A stretch of DNA of 64,000 bases from a virus (lineage: Duplodnaviria > Caudoviricetes): the IMG/VR virus record IMGVR_UViG_3300027679_000366, positions 1 through 64,000 of that record. One strand, given 5' to 3'. Positions 1 to 61,668 of the stretch are shown piece after piece. The translations under genes and the position numbers were made by a program. The notes below the pieces were generated by a model. That model was not told the origin of the DNA. It saw only the letters and a program-made list of their open reading frames with translations, and did not search any database. Numbering within the stretch: the first letter of the stretch is position 1; each line of letters starts with the position of its first letter.

Positions 1-143
1 GACATTTCCCAACCGCGGAACTTTGAGTGGTATTCTTCCATAACAGCGTCTTTGGCCATGGACAGCACGTCTGTGCGGATCTCGTAACCGTTCTTGCTGA
101 ATTTAACTTCTGGTAGTTTTGGTGTATCGAATGTGTTTGACAT
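1..143 (-). CDS. Conserved phage hypothetical protein (truncated by window start)
   Basis: Manual translation MSNTFDTPKLPEVKFSKNGYEIRTDVLSMAKDAVMEEYHSKFRGWEM; AGGAG RBS; homolog of 61399-61668. Confidence 0.9.
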   Translation of the reverse strand, partial: MSNTFDTPKLPEVKFSKNGYEIRTDVLSMAKDAVMEEYHSKFRGWEM

Positions 144-242
144 AATAATCTCCTGTGTGTAATGTCTGTATGTGACAGCAACTTTGCTGTCCATGTATTT
201 ATTATACAGTGTACAAGACTGTGTGTAAAGCTGAATGACTTA

Positions 243-815
243 TTAGCGAAACTTGTTTACTCTTTCTTCCACAAGTTGAATCACCACATCACTCAGCACA
301 ACTTCATAGTGGTTGTAGTCCACTTCTACTAGTTCCATATCAGCATGGTGTTTTTGACTAGCAACAGTAACTACGCCGTCATTATGTGCCAACATAAACG
401 GGCTTTGTCCTCGTACAGTAACAATATTAGTCCAAGGATGCTGTATTTTAATCTTATCTGCTTGTTTCATAGCCCACGAGTTGGGACCAATGTCACGCAT
501 TAGTCTACTGAATGGTAAAAAGTATTGTGCATAGTCCGCTACTTCAGCGCCACCATATGGTGTGCTTAGGGTAACAGCACCTTTAACAGCATTGGGCATT
601 GAGTTGGCTAGATGTAAACTGTATATGCCGCCCAAGCTATGTGCAACAAACACTATGTCAGTGCAGTTGCTCAAAGTTGACTGCATGTCTTCTAGGTTGT
701 TTTGAAACCCATTACGGCTGTCGTAGTTTAAATCTATGCCCGTGCCCAGTTTGCTCTTAATATAGTTGAAGCTCTCGCTGGTGGCGTTAGCACCGTGAAT
801 GTACACCAAGTTCAT
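243..815 (-). CDS. Alpha/beta hydrolase (esterase/lipase fold)
   Basis: YIHG oxyanion motif, AHSLGG nucleophile elbow, NDGVV and C-terminal NH; start set at MNLVYIHG. Confidence 0.85.
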   Translation of the reverse strand: MNLVYIHGANATSESFNYIKSKLGTGIDLNYDSRNGFQNNLEDMQSTLSNCTDIVFVAHSLGGIYSLHLANSMPNAVKGAVTLSTPYGGAEVADYAQYFLPFSRLMRDIGPNSWAMKQADKIKIQHPWTNIVTVRGQSPFMLAHNDGVVTVASQKHHADMELVEVDYNHYEVVLSDVVIQLVEERVNKFR

Positions 816-843
816 GCCAATATTTATCGGGCGCCGTACAGTG

Positions 844-957
844 TCAAGCCATAGTGATGGCAATAAAAGCCAACATAAACATCAATACTGCTCCCACAAT
901 GGGTAGCACAATATGTATGTGTTTGACCACATCTTCTACTGGATCATGCTCGTCCAT
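844..957 (-). CDS. 37-aa single-pass membrane peptide
   Basis: MDEHDPVEDVVKHIHIVLPIVGAVLMFMLAFIAITMA; conserved in arm B (60586-60699). Confidence 0.7.
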   Translation of the reverse strand: MDEHDPVEDVVKHIHIVLPIVGAVLMFMLAFIAITMA

Positions 958-1069
958 TGTACACAGCTTTAGATTCTTCTATGCGACCCTGACGAGCAAG
1001 ACTAGCCGCATAACGTGCTTCGCCAAATGCTACTATTACTGACCAGATGGTGTTTAATATTGTTTTCAT
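944..1069 (-). CDS. 41-aa hypothetical peptide
   Basis: MKTILNTIWSVIVAFGEARYAASLARQGRIEESKAVYNGRA; ATGA overlap with upstream ORF; conserved in arm B. Confidence 0.7.
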   Translation of the reverse strand: MKTILNTIWSVIVAFGEARYAASLARQGRIEESKAVYNGRA

Positions 1070-1242
1070 AGGTATTTTTCCTTTTGATAGTTAAACTGTT
1101 GGATATAGTTTTCTAATTGTGCGGCATCGGTAATGCCTTTGTCTGCTAGATACGCATCTAGACTTGATTGATATGATGAACCTGGGAACATTTCTGCTAA
1201 ACGTCCCATAATGGCCTGCATCTTTTCTGATAGATATTTCAT
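1066..1242 (-). CDS. 58-aa protein, possibly DUF3563-like
   Basis: MKYLSEKMQAIMGRLAEMFPGSSYQSSLDAYLADKGITDAAQLENY...; homolog at 60298-60477. Confidence 0.7.
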   Translation of the reverse strand: MKYLSEKMQAIMGRLAEMFPGSSYQSSLDAYLADKGITDAAQLENYIQQFNYQKEKYL

Positions 1243-1391
1243 TGTATGATTCCTCTGTATGTGTGTAGCTACTCATGGTTTCTACTGAGTATTTAGCAAG
1301 TATATGTGGCACTGCACAAATAATCAACCCTCTTGATTTCCATTCAAACAAATGTTACAATCAAATAAATACAGTAAGAGAGATTAACAAT

Positions 1392-1643
1392 ATGCGTAAA
1401 AGCACCCGTAGTATATTACAAGAACTAAGCGACATAGGCATCAAACGAGATACCGATTTGATCATAGAAAGCCGCGGTTCCAACTTGATCGACAGTGCTG
1501 TTAACCTATTGAAGCTGATACGTGAAAACTATGATGTGGAAACAGCCGCTGAATTGGAGCGCAGATTCATCAACAGCATACGCAGTGCTGACAGTAGCAA
1601 GTTCAAGCGCGGCATTAAAAAAATTCAAGAAGGCAAAGAATGA
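1392..1643 (+). CDS. Conserved phage hypothetical protein
   Basis: MRKSTRSILQEL...ELERRFINSI; TAAATA motif upstream; homolog 59902-60153. Confidence 0.85.
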   Translation: MRKSTRSILQELSDIGIKRDTDLIIESRGSNLIDSAVNLLKLIRENYDVETAAELERRFINSIRSADSSKFKRGIKKIQEGKE

Positions 1644-10370: not shown

Positions 10371-12713
10371 ATGAACATTACAGTAATTAAAAGAAACGGA
10401 CAAAAAGAGCCGTTGACAATCGATAAATGGCAAGCGCAGGTAGCAAAAGTTTGCCAAGGCATTGCAGATGTTAGCCAATCGATGATTGAAATCAAGGCTC
10501 AATTACATTTTTATGATGGCATAACAACTAAAGAAATTGACGGTATCACACTGCGAGCTATAGTTGACTTGATCGATGTGGAACAAAATCCAGACGTTGG
10601 ACATGTCAACTATCAATACGTAGCAGGCAAGCAACGGCTGAGTATGTTACGCAAAGACGTGTACGGCAGTTATACAGTTCCACACTTGTATGAAATTGTT
10701 AAGAAGAATGTGGCTACTGGCTTGTACACTAACGAACTGCTGGAATGGTATACTGAAGAAGACTGGAACCGGATGGAAGACATGCTGGATCACGAAAAAG
10801 ATGAACAGTATGGCTATGCGGCTATTGAGCAGTTGATTGAAAAATATCTTGTTAAAAACCGTGCAACAAAACAAACATATGAGACACCGCAGATCAGATA
10901 TATGATAGCGGCTGCAACTGTGTTTCACAAAGAAGAACCCAACAGCGCAAGGATGCGTTACATAAAGGAATATTACAATGCGGCTTCAGACGGTTTATTT
11001 ACTCTCGCTACTCCTGTTCTTGCTGGCCTTGGCACTCCCACTAAGCAGTTCAGTAGTTGTGTACTCATTCGCAGTGATGATGATCTTGACTCCATTTTTG
11101 CTAGTGGCGAAATGATGGCCAAGTATGCCAGCAAACGTGCTGGCATCGGTTTAGAGATCGGACGACTACGTCCCTTGGGCAGTCCCATCCGTGGTGGTGA
11201 GATCATGCACACAGGTATGATACCTTTCCTGAAAAAATGGTTCGGTGATTTGCGTTCATGTAGTCAAGGGGGTATCCGCAATGCTAGTGCTACTGTATTC
11301 TATCCTATTTGGCATCATCAGTTTGATGACCTTATTGTGCTTAAGAACAACCAAGGCACAGAAGAAACCCGAGTCCGTCATATGGATTATGGGGTTGTGC
11401 TTAGTGCTTTCTTCTGGAGACGATTTAAAAACAAACAAGACATAACATTCTTTGATCCCAACGAAGTGCCGGACCTGTATGAAGCATTTTATCAAAATAC
11501 TGAACTGTTTGAAGAGCTGTATGTAAAATACGAAAAACGCAAAGACTTGCGTACCAAGACGATGAATGCCGAAGAAGTATTCAAAAGCGGAATACTAAAA
11601 GAACGCACTGATACTGGTCGCATCTATCTAGTGTTCATTGACAATGTAATGAAGCAGGGTCCGTTTGATCCTGAATACCATACCATCTACCAGAGTAACT
11701 TATGCTGTGAAATACTTTTACCGACAAAATCATTTAAAAGACTTGACGATGCAGAAGGACGTATCGCGCTCTGCACACTTGGCAGTATCAACTGGGGAGC
11801 TTTCAGGAATCCCGAAGATATGCGCCGTGCTTGCCGTATTCTACACCGTAGCCTCAATAATATACTTGATTATCAAGACTTCCTAAGTATCCAAAGTAAA
11901 CTAAGTAATGACGAGATTCGTCCGTTGGGTATTGGCATTACTAATTTAGCATACTGGCATGCCAAGCGTGGACTCAAGTATGGGGAGAAGGATGCACTAC
12001 AAGATGTAAAAAGTTGGATGGAACATCAGGCCTTTTACTTGACAGAAGCCAGCGTTGAGCTGGCAAAAGAACGTGGTGCGTGTGAAGGTAGCAGTCAAAC
12101 ACGCTATGGAAAAGGCGTATTTCCGTGGGAACTCCGTGCCAACGGATCTAATGAACTGGCAAACTTTGCTCCTGAACTTGATTGGGAAACACTGCGCGGT
12201 CAGATGAAAGAACACGGTGTACGTAATGCTACACAGATGGCAGTTGCACCAGTTGAAAGTTCAAGTGTGGTTATTAACAGCACTAATGGCATTGAAATGC
12301 CTATGAGTTTGATCAGTGTTAAAGAATCGAAAGCTGGATCGTTTGTACAGGTTGTTCCAGAATATCACAAACTAAAGAACAAGTATCAATTGATGTGGGA
12401 CCAGAAAGACTGCACTGGCTATCTAAAAACAGCAAGTGTGATTGCGGCTTATGTGGATCAAAGTATCAGCACAAACACATTTTATAATCCTGCACACTTT
12501 CCAGGACGTAAAGTTCCAACCACATTGATTGCCAAGAACTTGATGCAAGCTCAGTTATGGGGATTGAAAACCTTTTACTACAGCTTGATTAACAAAGCAG
12601 GCAGTAAGGCAGTGGAAGAACCTACTCCGGAACAAACACAAATTAATGGTGTACAAGTAAACGGCTATCATATTGAAGAGTTAGAAGACGACTGTGAGAG
12701 TTGCAAGCTATGA
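10371..12713 (+). CDS. nrdA: Class Ia ribonucleotide reductase alpha subunit with ATP cone
   Basis: VIKRNG ATP cone, KQFSSC, QSNLCCEI, LKTFYY, terminal CESCKL. Confidence 0.97.
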   Translation: MNITVIKRNGQKEPLTIDKWQAQVAKVCQGIADVSQSMIEIKAQLHFYDGITTKEIDGITLRAIVDLIDVEQNPDVGHVNYQYVAGKQRLSMLRKDVYGSYTVPHLYEIVKKNVATGLYTNELLEWYTEEDWNRMEDMLDHEKDEQYGYAAIEQLIEKYLVKNRATKQTYETPQIRYMIAAATVFHKEEPNSARMRYIKEYYNAASDGLFTLATPVLAGLGTPTKQFSSCVLIRSDDDLDSIFASGEMMAKYASKRAGIGLEIGRLRPLGSPIRGGEIMHTGMIPFLKKWFGDLRSCSQGGIRNASATVFYPIWHHQFDDLIVLKNNQGTEETRVRHMDYGVVLSAFFWRRFKNKQDITFFDPNEVPDLYEAFYQNTELFEELYVKYEKRKDLRTKTMNAEEVFKSGILKERTDTGRIYLVFIDNVMKQGPFDPEYHTIYQSNLCCEILLPTKSFKRLDDAEGRIALCTLGSINWGAFRNPEDMRRACRILHRSLNNILDYQDFLSIQSKLSNDEIRPLGIGITNLAYWHAKRGLKYGEKDALQDVKSWMEHQAFYLTEASVELAKERGACEGSSQTRYGKGVFPWELRANGSNELANFAPELDWETLRGQMKEHGVRNATQMAVAPVESSSVVINSTNGIEMPMSLISVKESKAGSFVQVVPEYHKLKNKYQLMWDQKDCTGYLKTASVIAAYVDQSISTNTFYNPAHFPGRKVPTTLIAKNLMQAQLWGLKTFYYSLINKAGSKAVEEPTPEQTQINGVQVNGYHIEELEDDCESCKL

Positions 12714-13261
12714 GTTATAGTTTTATTAGACAATTCATTATGGAAGGCAAGCCGGCTTCTTTAAAAATATTGCCGTTGCCTTACGGTGTAAACGATCTGG
12801 CGCCGGCTATCTCCAAAGCCACAATAGATTATCATTACGAGCATCTAGCCAAAGGATATGCCAAGCGTTTCAATGCAGGCGAAGGCGATCCAGATTTTAA
12901 CGAAGCTGGTGCGTTCTTACACAACGTCCTATGGCAACAATATCAAGAGCCAAAAGACACTAATGAACCAACTGGCGCAGTGGCAGAACTTATTGTTAAA
13001 CATTATAAAACTTTTGCCAAGTTCAAAGATGAATTTGAAAAAGTAGCAATGGCAGTGCAAGGCAGTGGCTGGGTTTACCTGGCCAAGGACGGCAAGATCA
13101 AAACCATTGTGAATCATGAGATCAAGAAAGACATTGTGGTATTAGTTGACTGGTGGGAACATGCATGGGCACTGGACTATCAATCAGACAAGAAAGGTTA
13201 TTTGAAGAATCAATGGAAAATTATGAATTGGGACAAGATAAATGCTAGAAACATGTTGTGA
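12710..13261 (+). CDS. sod: Fe/Mn superoxide dismutase (arm A only)
   Basis: LPLPY...L.P.IS, YH, LHN, QGSGW, DWWEHAW; all four metal ligands present. Confidence 0.9.
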   Translation: MSYSFIRQFIMEGKPASLKILPLPYGVNDLAPAISKATIDYHYEHLAKGYAKRFNAGEGDPDFNEAGAFLHNVLWQQYQEPKDTNEPTGAVAELIVKHYKTFAKFKDEFEKVAMAVQGSGWVYLAKDGKIKTIVNHEIKKDIVVLVDWWEHAWALDYQSDKKGYLKNQWKIMNWDKINARNML

Positions 13262-16890: not shown

Positions 16891-17277
16891 ATGGCATACA
16901 GCGATAAGGTAATCGACCACTACGAAAATCCAAGGAACGTTGGATCATTCCCAAAAGATGATCCTGACATTGGCACGGGTATGGTCGGTGCGCCCGCTTG
17001 TGGCGATGTAATGAAACTACAGATAAAGGTAGATCATGATACAGGTATTATTACAGATGCAAAATTTAAAACGTATGGCTGTGGATCGGCTATCGCAAGT
17101 TCGAGCCTCGTTACAGAATGGCTGAAAGGCAAAACACTTGACGAAGCAGGAACAATCGAAAACTCCAAAATTGCCGAAGAACTAGCACTGCCTCCAGTCA
17201 AGATACATTGTTCAATACTAGCAGAAGATGCTATCAAAGCGGCTGTGCATGATTACCGTAACCGACACAGCGTATAA
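16891..17277 (+). CDS. iscU: Fe-S cluster scaffold IscU
   Basis: DHYENPRNVG, GAPACGD, YGCGSA, LPPVKIHC. Confidence 0.97.
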   Translation: MAYSDKVIDHYENPRNVGSFPKDDPDIGTGMVGAPACGDVMKLQIKVDHDTGIITDAKFKTYGCGSAIASSSLVTEWLKGKTLDEAGTIENSKIAEELALPPVKIHCSILAEDAIKAAVHDYRNRHSV

Positions 17278-17575
17278 AAAAATCAAACTGAATTTAGAAC
17301 GCCGGGGCAAAGGTGTTGGTATTCGTTTAGGTGTTCGTACTACTGGATGCAGTGGACTGGCATACACTATCGAATATGTGGACGAGTATACCGCAGAAGC
17401 AGGGGTAACCAATTATGCTCAAAAAGACTTTGTTGTGCTAGTAGATGCCAAAAGTCTAGCATATTTAAATGGCATCACAATGGATTGGGTCCGCAATGGA
17501 CTCAATGAAGGTTTTGACTTTCAAAATCCAAATGAACGCGACCGTTGCGGTTGCGGCGAGAGTTTCAGAGTTTAA
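17249..17575 (+). CDS. iscA: A-type Fe-S carrier IscA
   Basis: TGCSGLAY and CGCGESF. Confidence 0.96.
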   Translation: MITVTDTAYKKIKLNLERRGKGVGIRLGVRTTGCSGLAYTIEYVDEYTAEAGVTNYAQKDFVVLVDAKSLAYLNGITMDWVRNGLNEGFDFQNPNERDRCGCGESFRV

Positions 17576-19778: not shown

Positions 19779-21023
19779 ATGATTTTAGCGTACTTACTAC
19801 TATTAACTGGTTTAACGATATCTGCGGTCGCAATCTACTATAGTGTAGTAGGTCTGACCGCAATATTTTCTGCCGCGGCTATCCCAATTATCATCATGGG
19901 TTCAGCTTTAGAAGTAGGCAAACTGGTGTGCGCCAGTTGGCTCAAAGCCAACTGGACTCGTGCTCCTGCTTACATGAAGTACTATATGATTTCAGCAGTG
20001 GCTATACTGATGCTGATTACCAGCATGGGTATCTTTGGATTCCTTTCCAAAGCACACAACGATCAAAATTTAGTGAGTGGCGATGTCCAAAGTAAGATTG
20101 CTATCTATGATGAAAAGATCAAAACAGCACGAGACAATATAGATGCAAACCGCAAAGCTCTTAAACAGATGGATGAAGCTGTGGATCAAGTCATGGGCCG
20201 AAGCAGTGATGAAAAAGGTGCCGAAAAAGCTGTTCAAATTAGACGCAGTCAGCAAAAAGAACGTGCAAGGCTCCAGTCTGAGATCACCGCTGAACAAAAA
20301 ATTGTTGCCTCCGTTAGCCAAGAGCGTTCTCCAATCGCGGCAGAAGTACGCAAGGTTGAGGCTGAAGTAGGACCAATCAAATACATTGCCAAATTCATCT
20401 ACGGTGATAAAGGTGCAGATGAAAACATGTTGGAAAAAGCTGTCACATGGATCATCATAATGATTGTTATTGTGTTCGATCCTTTGGCAGTTATCATGTT
20501 GCTGGCCGCACAAATGACATTTGGTTGGCGCCGCGAAGGCACAGAACCTGTTAAGCCTGTAAGCATTAGCGACTTTGTTCCTCAACCCACAGAACACATT
20601 CCCAACAAAGAAACAAAAGAATCTGAAGTTGAGTATACTATTTTGGATGACCATCACGAACCGGATTATCCTGAACCAATCACAACAGCAGATCAAACTA
20701 CAAATATTAATCAAACTGAGGCACCAAGCGAAACGCCTGTTACAGCACTAGGAGGTGATATAACTGGACAGGAATCGTCAAATCAAGAATTTCCACAGCC
20801 AATAGAGCAATGGAACAACATGATTGCAGAGGCAGAAGCAGAGGCAAACAAAGAAATAGTTGAGAAGGAAGCTCGTAAATATCAAATACTTCCTGAACTT
20901 GTTGAACATACCAACGAGCGAAATAAGCCTGATCTTACTGAAGTTATAGAACCCATCGACTCAAAAAAAAAGACTTACATGATGAAGGCTCCGGACGGCT
21001 CAATACAGATCAAAAACCGTTAA
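19779..21023 (+). CDS. Multi-TM coiled-coil membrane protein (DUF4407-like)
   Basis: Three N-terminal TM helices, coiled coil, VFDPLAV TM, acidic tail; A9G slippery run at 20963-20972. Confidence 0.75.
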   Translation: MILAYLLLLTGLTISAVAIYYSVVGLTAIFSAAAIPIIIMGSALEVGKLVCASWLKANWTRAPAYMKYYMISAVAILMLITSMGIFGFLSKAHNDQNLVSGDVQSKIAIYDEKIKTARDNIDANRKALKQMDEAVDQVMGRSSDEKGAEKAVQIRRSQQKERARLQSEITAEQKIVASVSQERSPIAAEVRKVEAEVGPIKYIAKFIYGDKGADENMLEKAVTWIIIMIVIVFDPLAVIMLLAAQMTFGWRREGTEPVKPVSISDFVPQPTEHIPNKETKESEVEYTILDDHHEPDYPEPITTADQTTNINQTEAPSETPVTALGGDITGQESSNQEFPQPIEQWNNMIAEAEAEANKEIVEKEARKYQILPELVEHTNERNKPDLTEVIEPIDSKKKTYMMKAPDGSIQIKNR

Positions 21024-21292
21024 TAAGTAACGACTATGTACAAAACGCAGAACAAGGCGTTGATACATTATGGTCACGTATTACTGAACGTTCAACTTTA
21101 AAATTAAAAGATCAACTATATGTTGAATATGGCCTAGACCAATTTGCAGGCATAATTGTTGACAAAGAGGCAGAGCCAGAACTTTATGATTTTGTGGAAG
21201 ATTGTAAAACCAACGGCGCCCGTTTTTACGGATACCCAGAAGATAAAATGGAATATTTTGCAAGAAGGATTTATGAGCTTAGGAAAGATTAA
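20972..21292 (+). CDS. -1 frameshift alternative C-terminus of 19779-21023
   Basis: Open frame DLHDEG...YVQNAEQGVDTLWSRI...[13 protein letters not shown] with no suitable start; conserved in arm B. Confidence 0.8.
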   Translation, partial: DLHDEGSGRLNTDQKPLISNDYVQNAEQGVDTLWSRITERSTLKLKDQLYVEYGLDQFAGIIVDKEAEPELYDFVEDCKTNGARFYGYPEDKMEYFARRIYELRKD

Positions 21293-21677
21293 TTTGATAA
21301 CACCACCAGATAAGCTGTTCAATATGAACTTAGGCTATCTTTTGGTAAAACCAAGTGTATATGTTAAACAACAATTTCAAACTATATTGAGTCACAATAT
21401 GGAAGAAATTAATGTATTCGTTTACGACGAGAATGAACACGATATCGATTGGTTACTTAGTGTGGCCAATCAATGTGATGTTACTATAATAGATGTCGAC
21501 AACTGTGACCCAATTACTCAAAAATTTATCACTTATTTGTTAGCCCAGCCCAACACACACTATATAACTAACGACGAGATTACTCCTTATGGATTAATCA
21601 ACAAAAATAGAATTTACAATTTGGACTGGATTGTACAGCAAATGGACGATAACGAAGAGGATGAAACTGATGAGTAG
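21273..21677 (+). CDS. Conserved phage hypothetical protein
   Basis: [10 protein letters not shown]...IDVDNCD...NRIYNLD; homolog 38166-38582. Confidence 0.85.
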
Positions 21678-21906
21678 AGAAAAGCGGTATGATGGTAATC
21701 GTGTTACTGTCAAAGATAATGAAAACATAACACAGGCACTGCGTAGATTCAAACGTAAGATTGAAGACAGTGGACTTTTGGACACACTCCGTAAAAAAGA
21801 GTTTTATGAAAAGCCAACTACTGAACGCAAACGTAAAAAGAGTGCGGCCGTAAATCGATATAAAAAGAAACTTGAAAAAGAGCAATTACCTAAAAAAATG
21901 TATTGA
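21670..21906 (+). CDS. rpsU: Ribosomal protein bS21
   Basis: [17 protein letters not shown]...EFYEKPT.ERKRKK. Confidence 0.93.
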
Positions 21907-21931
21907 CGTAGGCTAGTATACCTGTTATAAT
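21903..21931 (+). promoter_or_regulatory. Sigma70-like promoter
   Basis: TTGACG-17 nt-TATAAT; arm B has TTGACA...TATACT at the equivalent site. Confidence 0.7.
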
Positions 21932-21959
21932 TTAAGTTCACAATTAAGAAAGAATTTAA

Positions 21960-22544
21960 ATGGCCAATACGGATATTATGATTGACTTGGAAACACTGGC
22001 AACATCTACTGATGCTACGATCCTAACAATTGGTGCTGTGAAGTTTGACCCTTTTGGGAAAGACATCGAAGAACCCGCAATGGATTCTTTCTATGTTAGA
22101 GTAGACTTGGATAGCTGTGACGAACTTGGACTTGCAGTTAACGATGACACTATAGCATGGTGGGCACAACAAAGCCAAGAAGCACAGGACGAAGCCTTTG
22201 GAACAGAGGGCCGTATTCACATCCGCGAAGCTATGGAAAAACTTTACAAGTTTTGCTGGGGCGCCAAGCGTGTATGGGCTAATGGTGCTTGCTTTGACAT
22301 TCCAATTTGCGAAACTGCATATCGCAAACTTAACAAAGCAATCCCATGGAGTTTCTGGCAAATACGTGATGTGCGCACTGCCTTTGACTTGGGTATCGAT
22401 CCTCGTCGTCCAACTGTAACAGCACACCACGCATTGCAAGATGCATACAATCAAGCAGTAGGAATACAAAATGTATATACACTTTTGCGTAGCAGTACGA
22501 CAAGAGAAGGTAATTACATTACACCTTTTAAAAATGAAAGATAA
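21960..22544 (+). CDS. DEDDh 3'-5' exonuclease (Rv2179c/DUF5051-like)
   Basis: MIDLETL, WANG..FD, RDVRT, HHALQDA. Confidence 0.9.
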   Translation: MANTDIMIDLETLATSTDATILTIGAVKFDPFGKDIEEPAMDSFYVRVDLDSCDELGLAVNDDTIAWWAQQSQEAQDEAFGTEGRIHIREAMEKLYKFCWGAKRVWANGACFDIPICETAYRKLNKAIPWSFWQIRDVRTAFDLGIDPRRPTVTAHHALQDAYNQAVGIQNVYTLLRSSTTREGNYITPFKNER

Positions 22545-22546
22545 AA

Positions 22547-22831
22547 ATGGACTCACAAACTAAAGAAGTAATGGACATTCTCCAGGAAGAATGTGCTGAA
22601 GTAATTCAAGCGGTAAGTAAAATCAGCCGTTTTGGTATTGACAATTTCAAACCAGGTAAACCTAAAACCAACAGAGAACATCTTGAAGAAGAACTTGGCG
22701 ATTTACAAGCTATGGTGGAAATCCTACAAGAGCTTGATATTGTAAGCTGGACTAATATTGAACGTGCGGCCGAAGCCAAACGTGAAAAACTCAAAATTTG
22801 GTCCAATATCTTTAAAACAGAGAACGTCTGA
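22547..22831 (+). CDS. MazG-like NTP pyrophosphohydrolase
   Basis: LQEECAEVIQ...LEEELGD. Confidence 0.85.
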   Translation: MDSQTKEVMDILQEECAEVIQAVSKISRFGIDNFKPGKPKTNREHLEEELGDLQAMVEILQELDIVSWTNIERAAEAKREKLKIWSNIFKTENV

Positions 22832-22843
22832 GATAAATAAATT

Positions 22844-22898
22844 TGTAGTGCGCCGTAAGGGCCTACATATTCTTGCTTAATTAAAGGAGAACAATATG
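22844..22898 (+). promoter_or_regulatory. ROSE-like RNA thermometer of dnaK
   Basis: 5' hairpin, then TTCTTGCTT pairing with AAGGAGAA and leaving a bulged G. Confidence 0.7.
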
Positions 22899-24806: not shown

Positions 24807-24819
24807 TATAATGTAAACA

Positions 24820-37015: not shown

Positions 37016-37027
37016 AATTTATTTATC

Positions 37028-37312: not shown

Positions 37313-37313
37313 T

Positions 37314-37898: not shown

Positions 37899-37951
37899 TT
37901 AAGTTCTTTCTTTATTGTGAACTTAAAGTATAACACAGATATAACGCAATG

Positions 37952-38182: not shown

Positions 38183-38582
38183 CTGAGTCCTCATCATCTT
38201 CTGGGTCAGTAAGTTGTTCAACAATACTGTCCAGGTTATAAATCCTGTTTTTTGAAATTAAATTATATGGTGTAATTTCATCACTAGTTATATAGTATGC
38301 ATTTGGTTGTGCTATTAGAAATGTGATAAACTGTCTTGTGATTGGATCACAGTTATCAACATCTACTATTACCACATCTACCTGCTGTGAAACACTTAAC
38401 ATCCAACTAATATCAGTTTCTTCATGCTCGTACATGAATATGTTTAAATCATCTATGCTTTTACTCAATATTGCTTGAAACTGTTGTTTTACATATATCG
38501 ATGGCTTAACTAACAGATAACTTAAATTCAAATTGAATAGTTTATCCGGCGGTGTTATTACTGTTATTTTTCCTAAGTTCAT
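38166..38582 (-). CDS. Conserved phage hypothetical protein
   Basis: Homolog of 21273-21677; start MNLGK. Confidence 0.85.
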
Positions 38583-38883
38583 ATATCCTGCTTGCAAAGT
38601 ATTCGATGTCTGATGGCCCATAGTCGTCAAACTTATGTGTACCATCTTGTATAGCTTTAATAAATCGATCTATCTCTAATTCCTGTGATGCATCTATACC
38701 TTCAAATCGATCTTTATCAAACTCTATGTAAAGACGATCCATTGGTTTGAATATATCAACTGAACTTCGATCTTGTATTCTTGCCCAAAGTGTATCAGCA
38801 CCTTGCTCGGCATTTTGTACGTATCCTATTACTCCCGTGTCTTCACTTGCAACTGTCCGTCCGGGTTCTTGATCATGTAAGTC
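38542..38883 (-). CDS. -1 frameshift alternative C-terminus of 38829-40034
   Basis: DLHDQE...YVQNAEQGADTLWARI...[12 protein letters not shown] is open from the A AAA AAG site. Confidence 0.8.
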   Translation of the reverse strand, partial: DLHDQEPGRTVASEDTGVIGYVQNAEQGADTLWARIQDRSSVDIFKPMDRLYIEFDKDRFEGIDASQELEIDRFIKAIQDGTHKFDDYGPSDIEYFASRIYELRKNNSNNTAG

Positions 38884-40034
38884 TTTTTTTTAGACTCGTC
38901 TTCCTGGCCCCATAGTTCAGCTAGTGAAATTGTTTTTGCCGGTGTATCGTTAGCAATAGGTAGTTGGGCATCGGCTTCTACTTTTAAAAGGTGTTCACCC
39001 CTATTAAGTTCAGCTTCAATTTTTTCAGCCTCAACTGCTTTCTCAGCTTCTTCTATCATTGTATTCCATTTTTCTAGCTCTGACTCTGTAGGTACTTCTT
39101 CTACAGGTTCCTCCGGCGCTGTTATATCACCTCCTAGTGCAGTCGACGGTGTTTCGCTTGGAACTTCTTCTGTGTGTGTTTGTTTAATTTCTGTGTTTGG
39201 TTCTTGAATAATAGGAGGAACAATGCCTACTATAGTATTATCTTTATCTACTAGTAATGCACCATCTTTAGATTCTTCTTTACGCCAGCCAAATGTCATT
39301 TGTGCGGCCAGCAACATGATAACTGCTAACGGATCAAATACAACAACAATCATTATGATGATCCATGTTACTGCTTTTTCCAACATGTTTTCATCTGCGC
39401 CATGATCACCGTAGATGAATTTGGCAATGTATTTGATTGGTCCTACTTCAGCTTCTACTTTTCGAACTTCTGCGGCAATTGGAGAACGTTCTTCATTTAA
39501 GGCAACAATTGACTTTTGAGATTTAGCAATGTCAGCCTGTATTTGAGTTCTTTCTTTAGACTGTCGCTGACGCATAGCATTGGCATTAACAGCACCTTGA
39601 TCTGTTTTACTACGAGCAATCGTTTCGTCAATCGTAGCATCCATTTGCTTGAGTGCTTTACGATTGGCTTCAATGTTTTCTCGTTCTGTTTTAATTTTTT
39701 CGTCGTATATGGCAATCTTACTTTGGACATCACCACTGACTAGATTTTGGTCGTTGTGTGCTTTGGAAAGGAATCCAAAAATACCCATACTAGTAATAAG
39801 CATGAGAATAGCCACTGCCAAAATCATGTAATACTTCATGTAAGCAGGAGCACGTTCCCAATTGGCTTTAAGCCAGCTAGCACATACTAGTTTGCCAACC
39901 TCTAGGGCTGATCCCATTACAATGATAGGAATGACTGCCGCGGAAAAGATAGCAGTCAAACCTACTACAGAGTAGTAAATTGCGACTACAGAAATGGTGA
40001 GACCAGTAAGTAGTAATAACCAGGCTAAAATCAT
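38829..40034 (-). CDS. Multi-TM coiled-coil membrane protein (DUF4407-like)
   Basis: Homolog of 19779-21023. Confidence 0.75.
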   Translation of the reverse strand: MILAWLLLLTGLTISVVAIYYSVVGLTAIFSAAVIPIIVMGSALEVGKLVCASWLKANWERAPAYMKYYMILAVAILMLITSMGIFGFLSKAHNDQNLVSGDVQSKIAIYDEKIKTERENIEANRKALKQMDATIDETIARSKTDQGAVNANAMRQRQSKERTQIQADIAKSQKSIVALNEERSPIAAEVRKVEAEVGPIKYIAKFIYGDHGADENMLEKAVTWIIIMIVVVFDPLAVIMLLAAQMTFGWRKEESKDGALLVDKDNTIVGIVPPIIQEPNTEIKQTHTEEVPSETPSTALGGDITAPEEPVEEVPTESELEKWNTMIEEAEKAVEAEKIEAELNRGEHLLKVEADAQLPIANDTPAKTISLAELWGQEDESKKKTYMIKNPDGQLQVKTRE

Positions 40035-40036
40035 TA

Positions 40037-40612
40037 TTAAGCGTTAATTACAGTGACAGTATCAATTAATGAAACAGTAACAGTACCAAGTGTATTGGTA
40101 GCTGTACTGGCGGCTGAGACTGTAAGGCTTAGTTGTGTACCTTCAGCAGTAGTTGGATCATATACTCTACATGAAGCTGATGTTTCTTGACGAATTGCAT
40201 TAGCAACTGTGTTTTTAACGTATAGTGCTTTTGTAGTAATTGATCCACCGGCAATATCAGTTCCAGTAGTTGGAATGTATGCATCGCGCTCAAATTTAAC
40301 TGTGAACGTACATGATGTAGCTTGGTCATCGCCTACAGTTTCGCCTGCCATAGTAACATCTAAAATCTGGCAGTCGGTTAATCCTGTTAAGGCGTTGATA
40401 ATGTTGCGGAAACGCATATTACCCCTAGCACGGGCTTTACCCTTGACTAGTGTGGTTGGTGCAGTTGCAAGTGCGTCCCAGCCGTTTGAAGTAATACCAC
40501 CGTTGGTATTACCGTCAGCAGTTGGGTAATAGGTAGCTGAGCTAGTATCGATCGCTACTCTATAGAAGTTTGGTTGTAATTGGTTTGAATCTTGTTGGAA
40601 TCCTGATGGCAT
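40037..40612 (-). CDS. Probable virion structural protein
   Basis: Homolog of 19187-19771. Confidence 0.65.
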   Translation of the reverse strand: MPSGFQQDSNQLQPNFYRVAIDTSSATYYPTADGNTNGGITSNGWDALATAPTTLVKGKARARGNMRFRNIINALTGLTDCQILDVTMAGETVGDDQATSCTFTVKFERDAYIPTTGTDIAGGSITTKALYVKNTVANAIRQETSASCRVYDPTTAEGTQLSLTVSAASTATNTLGTVTVSLIDTVTVINA

Positions 40613-40700
40613 TGTATGCTCCTTAATATCTTATATTTATCAGTAAAACACCTGTTAGCTGATTATATACTAACAGGGTTTCACTTTACAATCTTTTTGA

Positions 40701-41036
40701 CTACTTAAACACAATTAAAGCAAGTAAACTTGCTTGGACAAAAAATCCAAGCCCGATTGTTACGATATTGAGTAAATCCTTTTGAATTGTTGCTTTAACA
40801 AAAAATAAGAACAAACCTAGCCAGCTAAACAAGACCATGTCAACTGGTGGCATTTTCTCTGTTAATCCAGTCATAACAGCAATCATTGTGGGGATTGTTG
40901 CTAAGTGCAATAGCACTACAGCAATCCATCCTGCGGTTTCTGCACTAATTTGCGGTGCATGTTCTTTAATGTTTTTAACCCAAAGATCTAAATTAAATAA
41001 ATCCTGTGTATATTTCTTAAATTGTGATGTATTCAT
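40701..41036 (-). CDS. Small three-TM membrane protein
   Basis: Homolog of 18756-19103. Confidence 0.7.
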   Translation of the reverse strand: MNTSQFKKYTQDLFNLDLWVKNIKEHAPQISAETAGWIAVVLLHLATIPTMIAVMTGLTEKMPPVDMVLFSWLGLFLFFVKATIQKDLLNIVTIGLGFFVQASLLALIVFK

Positions 41037-44264: not shown

Positions 44265-44936
44265 CTATAAGCCGCCTTTTATCTTAGCCCATAGAGATTG
44301 AGCAGACGAGCTAATTTGCGCACCGATAGTATCGATAGAGTCTGATATCCATTTGGCCACAGTTTTGTATGCATTAGATCCTGTTATCCAAGTTCCCACT
44401 TCGGCAACACTACTGCTAACAAATCCAATTGCTAATCCAGAAGCTCTAGAAGCTGATTGTATTAAGTTACCGTTTATTATAGCAGTTTTGAATTGGTCGT
44501 CTAGCGGTTTCATAACTGGCTTATCGGGTGAGGCCGCCTGATAAAAATTATTAATTTCTATTTGACTTGCGGCAGCTATTGTTAATGTTGCACCGTGTGT
44601 AGATTTAGTAGTGGCAACACTTCCAGTTGCGATATTAAGGTCGCTTAAAAACTTTGCTATTTCTTTTTTCCTATCAGCCATGCTTGCTAGACTGTCATTA
44701 ACTCCAGACAATACTCCAGCTATAGTTAATGGGGTTACACCGTTTCCTAATTGTAGCATTAAACTGGCAATCAATGAAGATAACACCAAAGCCTCAGCTT
44801 CAATTCTAGCGGCATAATCGTTAGTAACGGTAACTTGAACTGGAACAAACGGAGGCAACGGCCCAATTGAATAAGGTTGATTACTTGTACCGGGTTGTGG
44901 ACTAGCAACAAAAACTTGTTTTTGACCGTAAGCCAT
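44265..44936 (-). CDS. Hypothetical late protein (tandem paralog 2)
   Basis: LSG.N.SLA..AD, LSDLN..TGSVA, AASQIE, GTWI.G..AY.TVA.W shared with 44936-45571. Confidence 0.75.
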   Translation of the reverse strand: MAYGQKQVFVASPQPGTSNQPYSIGPLPPFVPVQVTVTNDYAARIEAEALVLSSLIASLMLQLGNGVTPLTIAGVLSGVNDSLASMADRKKEIAKFLSDLNIATGSVATTKSTHGATLTIAAASQIEINNFYQAASPDKPVMKPLDDQFKTAIINGNLIQSASRASGLAIGFVSSSVAEVGTWITGSNAYKTVAKWISDSIDTIGAQISSSAQSLWAKIKGGL

Positions 44937-45571
44937 TATGCAGAAGATCCGCCCTTGGCTTTGGCAAACAGTGATGATACACTAGGTGGCAACACTCCAA
45001 GAATTGAGTCAGCGGCATCAGATAACCAACCTGCAACGGTAGTATATGCTTTAGTCCCGGCAATCCAAGTACCTAGCGCCGCTGTATTAGTTGTGATATA
45101 GTCTGTGACTATGCCACCTACAACTGCGGCTTGGTTAAGTGATATGCCATTGATCACGCTGGTTTTTATTTGTGCAGGTAGTGTAGGCAGTACTGGCTCA
45201 GGCAAGTCTGCACGTTTTAATGCGTCCAGTGTGGCCTGCTTTTGAAAGTTATTCTGCTCAATCTGACTTGCGGCGGCCATTGCTGTTACCGCAGTTAGCG
45301 ACGATTGTGCGACTGCTACTGATCCTGTGGAAACATTAAGATCGCTAAGTTTTTTAGCAATCAATTTATCAGCATCGGCAATATTAGCAAGACTACTGTT
45401 AATACCAGATAAAATAGCAAGTAGTGTGCCGGGTGCTTCAGTGTTACCAATTTGCAAAATAATAGAATTAAAAGCAGCCTGTTGTGCTAGTGTTTGGTTA
45501 AAGATAGCAACGGCTGCATCGTCGGTTACTGTAGCCGTTCCAGGCCCTGTCATGGTTACTACACTTGGCAT
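44936..45571 (-). CDS. Hypothetical late protein (tandem paralog 1)
   Basis: Syntenic with and similar to 15573-16337. Confidence 0.75.
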   Translation of the reverse strand: MPSVVTMTGPGTATVTDDAAVAIFNQTLAQQAAFNSIILQIGNTEAPGTLLAILSGINSSLANIADADKLIAKKLSDLNVSTGSVAVAQSSLTAVTAMAAASQIEQNNFQKQATLDALKRADLPEPVLPTLPAQIKTSVINGISLNQAAVVGGIVTDYITTNTAALGTWIAGTKAYTTVAGWLSDAADSILGVLPPSVSSLFAKAKGGSSA

Positions 45572-47905: not shown

Positions 47906-48232
47906 CTATACTCTAAAACTTTCACCACAGCCGCAACGGTCACGCTCGTTAGGATTGACAAAATCAAAGCCTTCATTAAGTCCATTACGTACCCAATCCA
48001 TAGTCAACCCGTCTAGATAGGCTAGACTTTTGGCATCTACTAGCACAACAAACCCGTCGTGTGCAAAATTAGTCACTCCTACTTCGGCTTCGTAACTATC
48101 TACATATTCTAACACATAAGCTAATCCAGAGCAACCGGTAGTTTTCACACCAATCCTAATACCAACGCCCTTACCACGTTTAGCTAATGTTTGTTTAATT
48201 CGGTTACTGGCTGTGTCGGTTACGGTAATCAT
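47906..48232 (-). CDS. iscA: IscA
   Basis: TGCSGLAY, CGCGESF. Confidence 0.96.
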   Translation of the reverse strand: MITVTDTASNRIKQTLAKRGKGVGIRIGVKTTGCSGLAYVLEYVDSYEAEVGVTNFAHDGFVVLVDAKSLAYLDGLTMDWVRNGLNEGFDFVNPNERDRCGCGESFRV

Positions 48233-48590
48233 TCACTGCCGCCTTGATAGCATCTTCTGCCAATATACTACAATGTATTTTAACCGGAGGAAGAGCCAGT
48301 TCTTCTGCTATTTCTTTGTTTTTGATTGTTCCGGCTTCGTCGAGGGTTTTTCCCTTGAGCCATTCTGTAACGAGGCTCGAACTCGCGATAGCCGATCCGC
48401 AGCCATACGTTTTAAATTTTGCATCTGTAATAATACCTGTATCATCGTCTACCTTTATCTGTAGTTTCATTACATCACCGCAAGCAGGGGCGCCTACCAT
48501 GCCTGTGCCTACGGTAGGATCATCTTTAGCAAATGAGCCTACATTTCTTGGATTTTCATAATGGTCAATAACTTTTTCGGAATAACTCAT
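48204..48590 (-). CDS. iscU: IscU
   Basis: GAPACGD, LPPVKIHC. Confidence 0.97.
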   Translation of the reverse strand: MSYSEKVIDHYENPRNVGSFAKDDPTVGTGMVGAPACGDVMKLQIKVDDDTGIITDAKFKTYGCGSAIASSSLVTEWLKGKTLDEAGTIKNKEIAEELALPPVKIHCSILAEDAIKAAVNDYRNRHSQ

Positions 48591-59905: not shown

Positions 59906-60153
59906 TCTTTATCTTCCTGTATACGTTTGATGCCACGCTTGAACTTGGTGCCATCACCAGACTTAATGCTGTTGATAAAGCGGCGTTCTAGTTCGGCGGC
60001 AGTTTCAATGTCGTAGTTTTCCTTGATGAGATTAATTAGATTAATAGCACTTTGAATTATGTTTGAACCGCGGCTTTCAACTACTAGGTCAGTGTCTCGA
60101 CTGATACCTAGGTCGCTAAGTTCCTGCAAAATTGATCTGGTACTTTTACGCAT
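59902..60153 (-). CDS. Conserved phage hypothetical protein
   Basis: Homolog of 1392-1643. Confidence 0.85.
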   Translation of the reverse strand: MRKSTRSILQELSDLGISRDTDLVVESRGSNIIQSAINLINLIKENYDIETAAELERRFINSIKSGDGTKFKRGIKRIQEDKE

Positions 60154-60297
60154 ATTTTTATTCTTCCAAGTGTATTTATAGTATACACGGATTGAATAAT
60201 AATATCAATTAACTTGGTAAATGTTGCAGTGCCGTGTATACTTGCTAAATACTAAGTAGAAACCATGAGTAACTACACCAACACACAGGAAAGCAAA

Positions 60298-60477
60298 ATG
60301 AAATATCTATCAGAAAAGATGCAGTCTATACTGGAACGTTTAAGTGAAATGTTCCCAGGTAGCAGTTATCAATCAAGTCTAGATGCTTATCTAGCAGACA
60401 AAGGCATTACCGATGCCGCTCAACTCGAAAACTATGTTCGCGAGTTCAACTACTCTCAAAAAGGGAATTATCTATGA
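60298..60477 (+). CDS. Small protein, possibly DUF3563-like
   Basis: Homolog of 1066-1242. Confidence 0.7.
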   Translation: MKYLSEKMQSILERLSEMFPGSSYQSSLDAYLADKGITDAAQLENYVREFNYSQKGNYL

Positions 60478-60599
60478 AAACAATCATCAACTCAATCTGG
60501 TCATTTTTAGAAGCATTTGGCCAAGCACGTTATGCGGCTAGCCTTGCTCGTCAAGGTCGCGTGGAAGAATCCAAAGCTGTGTACAATGGACGAGCATGA
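60474..60599 (+). CDS. 41-aa hypothetical peptide
   Basis: MKTIINSIWSFLEAFGQARYAASLARQGRVEESKAVYNGRA. Confidence 0.7.
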   Translation: MKTIINSIWSFLEAFGQARYAASLARQGRVEESKAVYNGRA

Positions 60600-60699
60600 T
60601 CCAGTAGAATCAGTGGTCAAACACGTACACATCGTGCTACCCATTGTGGGAGCAGTATTGATGTTTATGTTGGCTTTCATTGCCATCACTATGGCTTGA
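60586..60699 (+). CDS. 37-aa membrane peptide
   Basis: Homolog of 844-957. Confidence 0.7.
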   Translation: MDEHDPVESVVKHVHIVLPIVGAVLMFMLAFIAITMA

Positions 60700-60727
60700 C
60701 GCTGTACAACACCTGATAAATATTGGC

Positions 60728-61300
60728 ATGAACTTGGTGTACATTCATGGAGCAAATGCCACAAGCGAAAGCTTCAACTATATTAAAAGTAAACTGGGCA
60801 CGGGCTTAGACCTTAATTATGACAGTCGAAATGGGTTTGAAAACAATCTAAAAGACATGCAGTCAACGTTGCAAAACTATAAGAACCTAGTGTTTGTTGC
60901 ACACAGCTTGGGCGGTATATACGCATTGCATTTGGCCAACTCAATGCCCGAGTCCGTTAAGGGTGCTGTTACATTGAGCACACCATATGGTGGTGCTGAA
61001 GTAGCGGACTATGCTCAATACTTTTTACCATTCAGCAGACTGATGCGTGACATTGGACCCAGTTCGTGGGTAATGAAGCAGGCCAACCGTATCAAGATAC
61101 AGCATCCGTGGACAAACATTGTTACTGTGAAAGGACAAAGTCCGTTCATGCATGGGCCCAACGATGGTGTGGTAACTATTGCCAGTCAACGGCATCATGG
61201 GGACATGGAACTGGTGGAAGTGGACTGTAACCACTATGAAGTTGTGCTGAGTGATGCAGTTGTTAAACTTGTGGAAGAAAGAGTAAACAAGTTTCGCTAA
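60728..61300 (+). CDS. Alpha/beta hydrolase
   Basis: AHSLGG; homolog of 243-815. Confidence 0.85.
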   Translation: MNLVYIHGANATSESFNYIKSKLGTGLDLNYDSRNGFENNLKDMQSTLQNYKNLVFVAHSLGGIYALHLANSMPESVKGAVTLSTPYGGAEVADYAQYFLPFSRLMRDIGPSSWVMKQANRIKIQHPWTNIVTVKGQSPFMHGPNDGVVTIASQRHHGDMELVEVDCNHYEVVLSDAVVKLVEERVNKFR

Positions 61301-61398
61301 TAAGTCATTCAGCTTTACACACAGTTATGTATACTGTATAATAAATACATGGACAGCAAAGTTGCTGTCAATACAGACATTACACACAGGAGATTATT

Positions 61399-61668
61399 AT
61401 GTCACAATTCGAAACACCAAAACTACCAGAAGTTAAATTCAGCAAGAACGGTTACGAGATCCGCACAGACGTGCTGTCCATGGCCAAAGACGCTGTTATG
61501 GAAGAATACCACTCAAAGTTCCGCGGTTGGGAAATGTCAGTGGCCAAAGACGAAAAGACTGGTCAAGTTGTTACCAGAGTAGATATGCCAGAGTTTCCAG
61601 GCTTAGACAAGATCATGGAAGCGGCTGAAAAGTTCTATGGGTTCGTTAATACGGGCACAAAGAAGTAA
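61399..61668 (+). CDS. Conserved phage hypothetical protein
   Basis: KNGYEIR.DVL.MAKD...AEKFY.FV; strong RBS. Confidence 0.85.
   Translation: MSQFETPKLPEVKFSKNGYEIRTDVLSMAKDAVMEEYHSKFRGWEMSVAKDEKTGQVVTRVDMPEFPGLDKIMEAAEKFYGFVNTGTKK

Follow-up and report, generated by a model that had tools for sequence, protein, structure and literature searches.

The window analysed here, bases 1–64,000 of one linear IMG/VR virus record of 85,853 bp (IMGVR_UViG_3300027679_000366), contains two diverged versions of the same phage region joined tail to tail. We conclude that the record is very probably a chimera, created in metagenome assembly from two related freshwater phages that occur together (A and B) and connected through a shared cassette of ~1.7 kb, and that the mirror is most likely an artefact, not a new kind of genome. 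As expected of a chimeric contig, the abundances of the two sides vary independently (A:B 0.57–1.30 by contig-level k-mer depths in 4 of the 19 runs holding this region), the joint lies in a stretch with a depth of about the sum of its sides (runs X1 and X13), and the arrangement is absent from complete or long relatives (0 of 165 loci, and four relatives with single copies). CheckV puts the completeness of the record at 23%; the full genomes of phages A and B are probably about 370 kb.

Arm A (1–26882, plus strand) pairs with arm B (61538–32978, minus strand) in a collinear, inverted and diverged arrangement. Self-blastn returned 15 segments, every one inverted, with 63–88% nucleotide identity between the arms, and a repeat search agreed on the inverted pairing. 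Partners in arm B were found for 34 of the 44 script-called ORFs in 1–26869 (E ≤ 1e-3), at 32–97% amino acid identity. The mirrored arms of ~30 kb reported in the original prediction are thus present in the record, as are the near-identical orthologues it named (aldolase, 97%; FDBR, there called PcyX, 93%; IscU, 92% amino acid identity) and the genes unique to each arm, such as an Fe/Mn SOD confined to A and a GT8 glycosyltransferase confined to B. Two pairs that it described as barely alignable have no significant similarity at all (26880 versus 31133, E = 0.57; 4765 versus 56194, E = 0.29).

Homology between the arms is detectable only up to 26882/32978, so that 6 kb around the axis is unmirrored, and 61539–85853 has no counterpart in arm A. 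Gene order differs in arm B, where IscU–IscA is relocated beside RNR alpha; the B-only genes include the glycosyltransferase and, at 44265–45571, tandem paralogues. In the B-only continuation, a PA14/GLEYA protein and an AlaS-like aminotransferase are encoded alongside genes for sugar, nucleotide and lysis functions. A 636-aa protein was identified as DnaK by tblastn, and both lineages carry heme and bilin, Fe-S, chaperone and RNR genes. No tRNA genes were found in the whole 85,853-bp contig, and megablast of 20000–31000 against the phage collection gave no match. Between arm pairs, dS runs from 0.57 to above 3 and dN/dS from 0.035 to 0.30 (19/22 pairs with computable dS), values that place the mirror far beyond chance; the dN/dS ratios indicate strong purifying selection on both arm copies. 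The record opens within a stretch common to A and B, for which the repeat search gave 132 nt at a 99% match. As its first 125 nt are identical in A and B, the start resembles a contig broken off at a branch point of the assembly graph. Coordinates are collected in Table 1.

Table 1 Features of the window and of the stretch around the joint
Feature	Position	Strand	Remarks
Contig start	1–125	.	Identical to reverse complement of 61414–61538 (alignment)
Arm A, fragment of phage lineage A	1–26882	+	Listed Logan pieces in X1 at depth 28–37
Arm A genes, group I			Alpha/beta hydrolase, tail-spike-like 690 aa, RNR alpha, RNR beta, Fe/Mn SOD (A only)
Arm A genes, group II			Class II aldolase, IscU, IscA, cell-wall hydrolase, exoribonuclease
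Arm A genes, group III			DnaK, Hsp20, ClpS, heme oxygenase, FDBR
558-aa gene, A-specific	26880–28556	+	Positional partner of the 637-aa gene of B; similarity not significant (E = 0.57)
A-specific spacer and first 39 codons of 204-aa gene	28557–28736	+	Arm-A contigs cross, stop at 28736
Shared cassette, likeliest A-to-B switch of assembly path	28737–30429	+	Logan depth roughly A+B (X1, X13)
Cassette content			Rest of 204-aa gene (28620–29234), 53-aa ORF, 81-aa gene (29505–29750), most of 260-aa gene (29750–30532)
Last 103 nt of 260-aa gene (B version) and 7-nt strand-switch axis	30430–30539	.	
26-aa hydrophobic ORF (phage B)	30540–30620	-	
160-aa gene (phage B)	30617–31099	-	15 IMG/VR relatives
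637-aa gene, B-specific	31133–33046	-	52% relative in locus L083
Arm B, phage B orthologue of arm A	32978–61538	-	Listed Logan pieces in X1 at depth 53–63
B-only continuation, start	61539–64000	-	Runs on to contig 85853

Gene by gene, arm A and arm B align to one and the same region, 289.4–316.3 kb, of a 356,312-bp IMG/VR relative that CheckV rates as 96% complete. The B-only continuation is collinear with 316–351 kb of this relative, and its cassette lies at 279.6–281.2 kb on the opposite strand. Four IMG/VR relatives, this one among them, gave one DnaK and one RNR-alpha match each, while the record itself gave two for DnaK. The closest pair in 30 orthologue triplets was A–B in 11, A–relative in 11 and B–relative in 8, with mean amino acid identities of 72.3%, 74.1% and 71.7%, respectively; in 19 of the 30, an arm is nearer the 356-kb relative than its opposite arm. 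By these comparisons, the two arms represent a single-copy region in orthologous versions from two phage lineages; they did not arise by duplication within one genome. The original prediction had likewise attributed the divergence to two strains or species as opposed to a fold-back, a view supported by the amino acid identities, the mosaic nearest neighbours and the purifying selection on both copies.

We surveyed the layout of 165 loci with a homologue of the 260-aa protein, some of which are the same contig fetched twice. Arm genes lie downstream and antiparallel, that is convergent, in 23 loci (B-type), upstream and co-directional in 10 (A-type), and are absent within the flank in 132; no locus has the mirrored layout, with arm genes to the left and right of the 260-aa gene. 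Restricting the count to the 35 loci whose flanks reach at least 6 kb upstream and 9 kb downstream gave 8 B-type, 2 A-type, 25 without arm genes and 0 mirrored. Both A-type and B-type layouts therefore exist in nature, the former exemplified by FDBR>204>81>260>160> in locus L174 and FDBR>558-like>260> in L165. The 558-aa protein had no relatives in the IMG/VR relative search; relatives at 36–39% occur in L165 and L152. Neither PHROGs nor Pfam assigned a function to the 204-, 81-, 260-, 160- and 637-aa proteins. The three-gene cassette of membrane-anchored proteins varies in position and orientation among these phages.

A near-identical contig was not found in IMG/VR or JGI metagenomes as searched, where entries closest to the window may be left out. 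A 30-mer taken from A-specific sequence immediately left of the cassette had 0 exact matches in IMG/VR, and a metagenome scan with the 260-aa protein returned 80 loci, none of them near-identical, the best being 94% at the amino acid level on a 1,278-nt contig.

Read depth was taken from Logan contigs in four (X1, X8, X13 and X14) of the 19 holder runs, with 32 of 884 pieces listed and arm means computed over listed pieces only. Each depth is one k-mer mean per Logan contig, summed over strains, and such contig-level values are unsuited to fine use. On the listed pieces, arm A and arm B stood at 28.2–37.1 and 52.7–62.6 in X1, possibly the source run (A:B 0.57), 53.4–70.1 and 47.8–64.9 in X8 (1.08), 4.7–9.2 and 8.8–15.2 in X13 (0.62), and 28.4–37.2 and 14.6–29.6 in X14 (1.30). 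The ratio varies only about 2.3-fold across runs on piece means, and from 0.52 to about 2–2.5 right beside the joint. The A-like pieces in X14 carry 1–4 other letters and so may derive from a variant strain. Three bins covering the cassette (28338–30338) had depths of 78–93 in X1, where the stretch 28737–30429 stood at about 75–93, against 28 (A) plus 54 (B), or 82, beside the joint, and of 19–25 in X13, against 9 (A) plus 11 (B), or 20. In X8 (117–167) and X14 (68–144) the same bins were at or above A+B, which suggests that further strains share the stretch. Arm depths are thus uncoupled across runs, and cassette depth is roughly A+B. A comparison of arm coverage had been proposed in the original prediction, with differing profiles taken to point to a chimera, and this is the outcome seen across the four runs.

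Arm-A pieces stop at 28736 in X1, X8 and X13, and an arm-B contig in X1 spans exactly 30430–33014 at a depth of 53.8, with 0 other letters. Logan contigs break every 1–3 kb here, so that ends at these two positions would be unremarkable taken alone; among the 24 of 109 loose ends shown, there were no alternative branches at the cassette edges. None of the 32 listed pieces bridges 28736–30430 in the four runs; with 32 of 884 pieces listed and records filtered, this carries no weight here. The 260-aa gene ends in a TAG stop at 30530–30532, and the 26-aa minus-strand ORF has its stop at 30540–30542, a gap of 7 nt. The spacing described previously is correct when this ORF is counted as a gene, and the axis interrupts no ORF; if the 26-aa ORF is discounted, the first stop reached on the minus strand is that at 30617. 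As a mismatch-free contig at arm-B depth covers the axis, and relatives have the same convergent junction of the 260- and 160-aa genes, the strand-switch axis at 30533–30539 belongs to phage B itself, as a native convergent junction, and is not the point of misjoining.

The chimera most probably arose as follows. Phage A would supply 1–28736, with its arm followed on a single strand by the 558-aa gene, the 204-aa gene and onward, and phage B would supply 30430–85853, including its native junction, in which the 260-aa gene faces the 26-aa and 160-aa genes. Both phages would carry a nearly identical cassette of ~1.7 kb (204-, 81- and 260-aa genes; about 28737–30429), in opposite orientations in A and B relative to the DnaK–HemO–FDBR arm. 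The short-read graph would merge the two cassette copies into one node, and an assembler whose path came in from A and went out to B would place arm B, reversed, behind arm A. We infer the exact switch point within the cassette, the true sequence of B upstream of its 204-aa gene and the true continuation of A, which by analogy with L174 would be expected to run from the 260-aa to the 160-aa gene on the same strand. A chimera through an oppositely oriented cassette was one of the two explanations originally put forward; it is the one favoured here, with the cassette redrawn from 28560–31100 to about 28737–30429.

Words of A and B occur together in all 19 holder runs, which date from 2017–2025. 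All 19 runs that contain 50% or more of the words of 26000–33500 contain at least 87%, and none among the listed holders has the A part alone or the B part alone. Such constant company counts against a chimera, being what one molecule predicts; it is equally expected if the runs come from a single lake system in which the two phages persist. It would also fit a real molecule, either a hybrid phage genome or a product of homologous recombination within the cassette between co-infecting A and B phages, with one arm of each, tail to tail. An oppositely oriented shared cassette is the exact substrate for such recombination, and all genes are intact in both arms and under purifying selection. We nevertheless consider a hybrid improbable. 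The arm depths are unequal and swap sides, with B about 1.75 times A in X1 but no higher than A in X14; none of the 165 related loci is mirrored; and the relative rated 96% complete carries one copy. Cassette depth is near A+B instead of matching the larger arm, so free A and free B genomes are needed anyway and nothing requires a hybrid, while a dimer without the rest of the genome of A would hardly be viable. The partially diploid phage raised in the original prediction is disfavoured by the same uncoupled arm depths and by the lack of a counterpart in the 165 loci or the 96%-complete relative. It is very unlikely that the joint is a true minor product, with A/B heterodimer genomes persisting at low level in lake viromes; were this so, the cassette would be a mobile module, exchanged not long ago, that drives major rearrangements of very large phage genomes.

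If one phage genome had long ago duplicated about 27 kb in inverted orientation and the copies had since diverged, the same collinear inverted gene order with both copies intact would result. We regard this as extremely unlikely, given that 19 of the 30 triplets put one arm nearer the single copy of another phage, that relatives have one copy and that the arm depths are unequal; a dS of about 0.6 to above 3 would, in addition, mean a 27-kb redundancy kept for a long time without gene conversion or loss. The tail-to-tail geometry also brings to mind a fold-back in the library or during replication, whether a hairpin-telomere junction, a palindromic intermediate or a single-genome amplification chimera. 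A fold-back yields identical arms, whereas these are 63–88% identical, and neither a palindrome at the axis nor a protelomerase or recombinase domain among 50 Pfam-scanned proteins was detected, which leaves it next to no chance. We thus return to an assembly chimera of phages A and B as the preferred reading.

On that reading, the public 85.9-kb record appears to join 30.5 kb of one phage to 55.3 kb of another, and should be split near 28.7–30.4 kb in curation. The doubled auxiliary genes, among them DnaK, RNR, HemO, FDBR and IscU, should not be taken to reflect gene dosage or partial diploidy. The record provides a worked example of how a short, oppositely oriented cassette in two co-occurring relatives can lead to a large false mirror. 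A modest piece of biology remains, namely two mosaic lineages of very large freshwater phage at roughly equal distances, found together in every holder run from 2017 to 2025.

Freshwater phages that carry hemO–pcyA/X and a viral 5-aminolevulinate synthase gene (valaS) have been reported (Nat Commun 2024, PMC11480375). As in those phages, the heme oxygenase gene lies directly upstream of the FDBR gene in each arm. Pfam matches to Heme_oxygenase (E = 7e-19) at 25651–26196 and Fe_bilin_red (E = 9e-14) at 26150–26869 are adjacent, with orthologues in arm B. A 401-aa protein at contig 63752–64957, about 30 kb from hemO–FDBR in phage B, matches Aminotran_1_2 (E = 1e-63), an assignment at family level.

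Linear phages of the N15 type have hairpin telomeres and palindromic replicative junctions. The record shares with such a junction the tail-to-tail mirror symmetry about one point, and differs from it in that the arms are diverged (63–88% nucleotide identity). No inverted repeat centred on 30533–30539 was found, nor any protelomerase domain in the 50 Pfam-scanned proteins, a scan that leaves aside many small ORFs in a record covering only 23% of a genome. The invertible segments of phages, Mu G and P1 C, offer another parallel, since here too a small gene cassette is present in both orientations among related phages. Unlike these segments, the cassette also shifts relative to the 160-aa gene, beyond a simple flip. 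Flanking inverted repeats at about 28.7/30.4 kb were absent among the pairs listed (25 of 90), and proteins neighbouring the cassette had no Pfam match to an invertase or recombinase; on these grounds an invertible segment of the Mu G or P1 C type was rejected.

Short-read metagenome assemblies give inter-strain chimeric contigs by misjoining through a repeat common to related genomes. The record resembles these contigs in its co-occurring relatives, in a joint within a collapsed stretch of about summed depth, in flanks that differ in depth and in relatives that do not have the arrangement. It is unlike the usual inter-strain chimera in that the shared stretch is oppositely oriented with respect to the conserved arm, which produces a 27-kb mirror in place of a simple strain swap.

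The mirrored arrangement is confirmed as a real property of the sequence. Self-blastn returned 15 segments, all inverted, that pair 1-26882 (arm A, from phage lineage A) with 61538-32978 (arm B, from lineage B) at 63–88% identity, in agreement with the repeat search. A script called 44 ORFs in 1-26869, and 34 of them are matched in arm B (32–97% amino acid identity), bearing out the mirrored gene order of the original prediction as well as its near-identical pairs: aldolase (97%), ferredoxin-dependent bilin reductase (FDBR, 93%) and IscU (92%). For the two pairs it called barely alignable (26880 versus 31133 and 4765 versus 56194), similarity is not significant (E = 0.57 and 0.29). Every pair is intact in both arms; in 19 of 22 A–B pairs dN/dS is 0.035–0.30 and dS ranges from 0.57 to above 3, the remaining three being saturated. 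Homology stops short of the axis (30533-30539), by 3.6 kb on its left and 2.4 kb on its right; GC content in the window is 35–43%, and the sign of the AT skew reverses near 30 kb, at the coding-strand flip. By self-blastn, 61539-85853 has no arm-A counterpart. The contig opens with 125 nt that match the reverse complement of 61414-61538 exactly, beyond which identity falls to about 82%. The record is single, linear and 85,853 bp long, and its CheckV completeness of 23% implies a full genome of roughly 370 kb.

Each arm encodes an alpha/beta hydrolase, a PD-(D/E)XK nuclease, a pectate-lyase-like tail spike, RNR alpha and beta, a class II aldolase, IscU, IscA, a cell-wall hydrolase, an Rv2179c-like exoribonuclease, ClpS, heme oxygenase, FDBR, DnaK and Hsp20. 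Arm-unique genes had also been predicted and were found: an Fe/Mn superoxide dismutase in A and a GT8 glycosyltransferase in B. IscU-IscA occupy in arm B the spot of arm A's dismutase. Their position in arm A is that seen in G002, a 356-kb relative, and the transposition is therefore carried by arm B. The B-only part further encodes epimerases, a PfkB kinase, HAD phosphatases, a dCMP deaminase, an SNase, an AlgH-like protein, a tail lysozyme, an M23 peptidase and a 2OG-Fe(II) oxygenase. Its PA14/GLEYA protein is, from its domains, a candidate host-adhesion or receptor-binding protein, and its HNH endonuclease gene could be a homing-type insertion. The tandem paralogues of arm B match no Pfam family. 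The scanned proteins included no terminase, capsid or portal, and the whole contig has no tRNA gene.

Coordinates of features in the record (locus L001 positions in brackets)
Feature	Position	Strand	Remark
Fe/Mn superoxide dismutase	12701-13261	+	arm A only, between RNR alpha and aldolase
IscU-IscA, arm A	16891-17575	+	position differs between arms
IscU-IscA, arm B	47906-48590	-	position differs between arms
558-aa gene	26880-28556		A
Cassette genes, whole span	28620-30532		204-, 81- and 260-aa genes
204-aa gene	28620-29234
53-aa ORF	29356-29517	+	adjacent to 81-aa ORF
81-aa ORF	29505-29750	+
260-aa gene	29750-30532	+	stop 30530-30532
26-aa hydrophobic ORF	30540-30620	-	stop 30540-30542; ATGA overlap with stop of 160-aa gene
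160-aa gene	30617-31099
637-aa gene	31133-33046		B
Tandem paralogues, 223 and 211 aa	44265-44936, 44936-45571	-	44% aa identity; arm B only
PA14 + GLEYA carbohydrate-binding protein, 402 aa	62500-63708	-	E = 7e-21; B-only part
Aminotran_1_2 protein, 401 aa	63752-64957 (L001:2752-3957)		E = 1e-63; B-only part
HNH endonuclease	72482-72997 (L001:11482-11997)	-	B-only part, between DUF454 and AlgH-like genes

The innermost stop codons lie 7 nt apart, as originally stated, if the 26-aa minus-strand ORF is a gene. Between the arms stands a cassette of 204-, 81- and 260-aa genes. The 204- and 260-aa proteins have a common N-terminal stretch (37% over 46 aa), and the 53- and 81-aa ORFs a common 25-aa C-terminal motif (60% identity). 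From translations read by eye, cysteine and tryptophan recur in that motif, and a hydrophobic, membrane-anchor-like segment is predicted in the 26-aa peptide and in each of the 204-, 260- and 160-aa proteins. These four gave no Pfam family and only weak matches to phrog_32327. Relatives of the 260-aa protein are widespread in lake viromes (503 IMG/VR and 552 metagenome stretches). Related lake phages (L174, L115, L165, L060, L003) differ in where the cassette sits and how it is oriented with respect to FDBR and the 160-aa gene: some have it between these two genes on the same strand, others beyond the 160-aa gene on the opposite strand, and nearby small genes are shuffled too.

Relatives carry the arm genes in single copy. 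We fetched 80 loci each from IMG/VR and metagenomes, with 15 (13 of them new) from a search with the 160-aa gene, and mapped the record's ORFs onto them. Among the 165 loci with a 260-aa homologue, counted as loci and not independent genomes, since several are one contig fetched twice, out of different collections or in opposite orientations, 23 have arm genes downstream only and antiparallel (type B: arm > ... > 160 > < 260 < 204), 10 have them upstream only and co-directional (type A, such as DnaK>Hsp20>ClpS>HemO>FDBR>...>204>81>260>...>160> in L174 and FDBR>558-like>260> in L165), 132 have no arm gene within the flank, and none has arm genes on both sides. Where at least 6 kb upstream and at least 9 kb downstream were available (35 loci), 8 were type B, 2 type A, 25 neither and none mirrored. 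DnaK and RNR-alpha each matched once in every one of four IMG/VR relatives; in the present record DnaK matched twice. One of the four, G002 (356,312 bp, 96% complete by CheckV), aligns gene for gene with both arms over a single region (289.4–316.3 kb), so that arm A adds a further orthologue of a stretch that natural genomes carry once. G002 has the 204- and 260-aa genes at 279.6–281.2 kb on the other strand, with the 160-aa gene between them and the arm, and the B-only part is collinear with it onward to about 351 kb; 30430-85853, axis included, is therefore a native type-B layout.

Sequencing runs separate the two arms. Of 24 listed runs, 19 contain at least 87% of the words sampled from 26000-33500; all 19 are freshwater, lake-water or crustacean metagenomes from 2017–2025, and four of the 19 are possible source runs. 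For X1 (possibly the source run), X8, X13 and X14 we used Logan's independent per-run contigs on 21001-41000, with depths from 32 of 884 pieces; each depth is a contig-level k-mer mean that adds up all strains and is fit for coarse use only. Arm A stood at 37.1, 32.8 and 28.2 in X1, with arm B at 53.8, 52.7, 59.2, 56.3 and 62.6 (ratio of means, A:B, 0.57). The corresponding values were 53.4–70.1 and 47.8–64.9 in X8 (1.08), 4.7 and 9.2 against 8.8–15.2 in X13 (0.62), and 28.4–37.2 and 14.6–29.6 in X14 (1.30; beside the joint, 28.6–37.2 and 14.6). Three bins inside 28338-30338 had 78–93 in X1 (A+B = 82) and 19–25 in X13 (A+B = 20); X8 (117–167) and X14 (68–144) were at or above A+B, so additional strains have this stretch. 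Among the pieces listed, those of X1 carried no other letters, and arm-A pieces stop at 28736 in X1, X8 and X13.

The axis junction is real in phage B, because one complete X1 contig covers exactly 30430-33014 (260-aa gene end, axis, 26-, 160- and 637-aa genes) at arm-B depth without mismatch. The adjacency of the 558- and 204-aa genes is real in phage A. Logan contigs, which break every 1–3 kb here in the four runs covered, support both; nothing in the data joins the two ends of the intervening 1.7-kb stretch.

Most likely the mirrored genome is no real feature, and two sympatric relatives have been joined in a chimeric contig. Arm depths, single-copy relatives and the lack of any mirrored locus among the 165 favour the original prediction's first explanation, a chimera through an oppositely oriented cassette. 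Its second, a real hybrid, partially diploid genome with arms from A and B, is improbable, as is a recombinant molecule of this kind: the only point in favour is that words of A and B occur together in all 19 runs, and to explain the depths both phages would have to exist as free genomes too, after which no observation requires a hybrid. An old inverted duplication is much less probable still, as both arms map to one G002 region and the closest pairs in 30 orthologue triplets are spread over all three pairings (A–B 11, A–G002 11, B–G002 8). With mean amino acid identities of 72.3%, 74.1% and 71.7%, respectively, the three are mosaic lineages about equally distant from one another, which excludes that the arms arose by duplication within one genome. 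A junction formed by fold-back or a hairpin, with scarcely any probability left, is ruled out because the arms have diverged (63–88% identity) and the axis has no palindrome.

For the chimeric contig, we propose that phage A would read arm > 558 > 204, 81, 260 > ..., on one strand, and phage B ... > 204, 81, 260 > < 26 < 160 < 637 < arm. The cassette is apparently nearly identical in the two, with arms about 80% identical, which suggests that it was recently exchanged between them. Its two copies would collapse to one short-read graph node longer than a typical insert, which the assembler could enter from A and leave into B. A shared cassette agrees with the original prediction; its extent, placed at 28560-31100, is redrawn to about 28737-30429. 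At 28746-28748 the only X1 contig there (depth 63.9) differs from the window, and at 29663-29708 the window's letters are at depth 50.2, close to that of arm B, weakly suggesting a path switch between about 28.75 and 29.66 kb. The record's start in the 125-nt A/B-shared stretch would be as expected for a contig ending at another branch. IMG/VR and JGI metagenome searches, from which the records nearest to the window may be missing, gave no near-identical contig for A's continuation beyond the cassette or for B's upstream side. The record is worth flagging for curation.

The 401-aa Aminotran_1_2 protein is, by its family, a candidate viral 5-aminolevulinate synthase; its gene lies about 30 kb from the hemO-FDBR pair of arm B. 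The hemO-FDBR pair and this separate AlaS-like gene together resemble the 'broken cassette' that PMC11480375 describes in aquatic phages.
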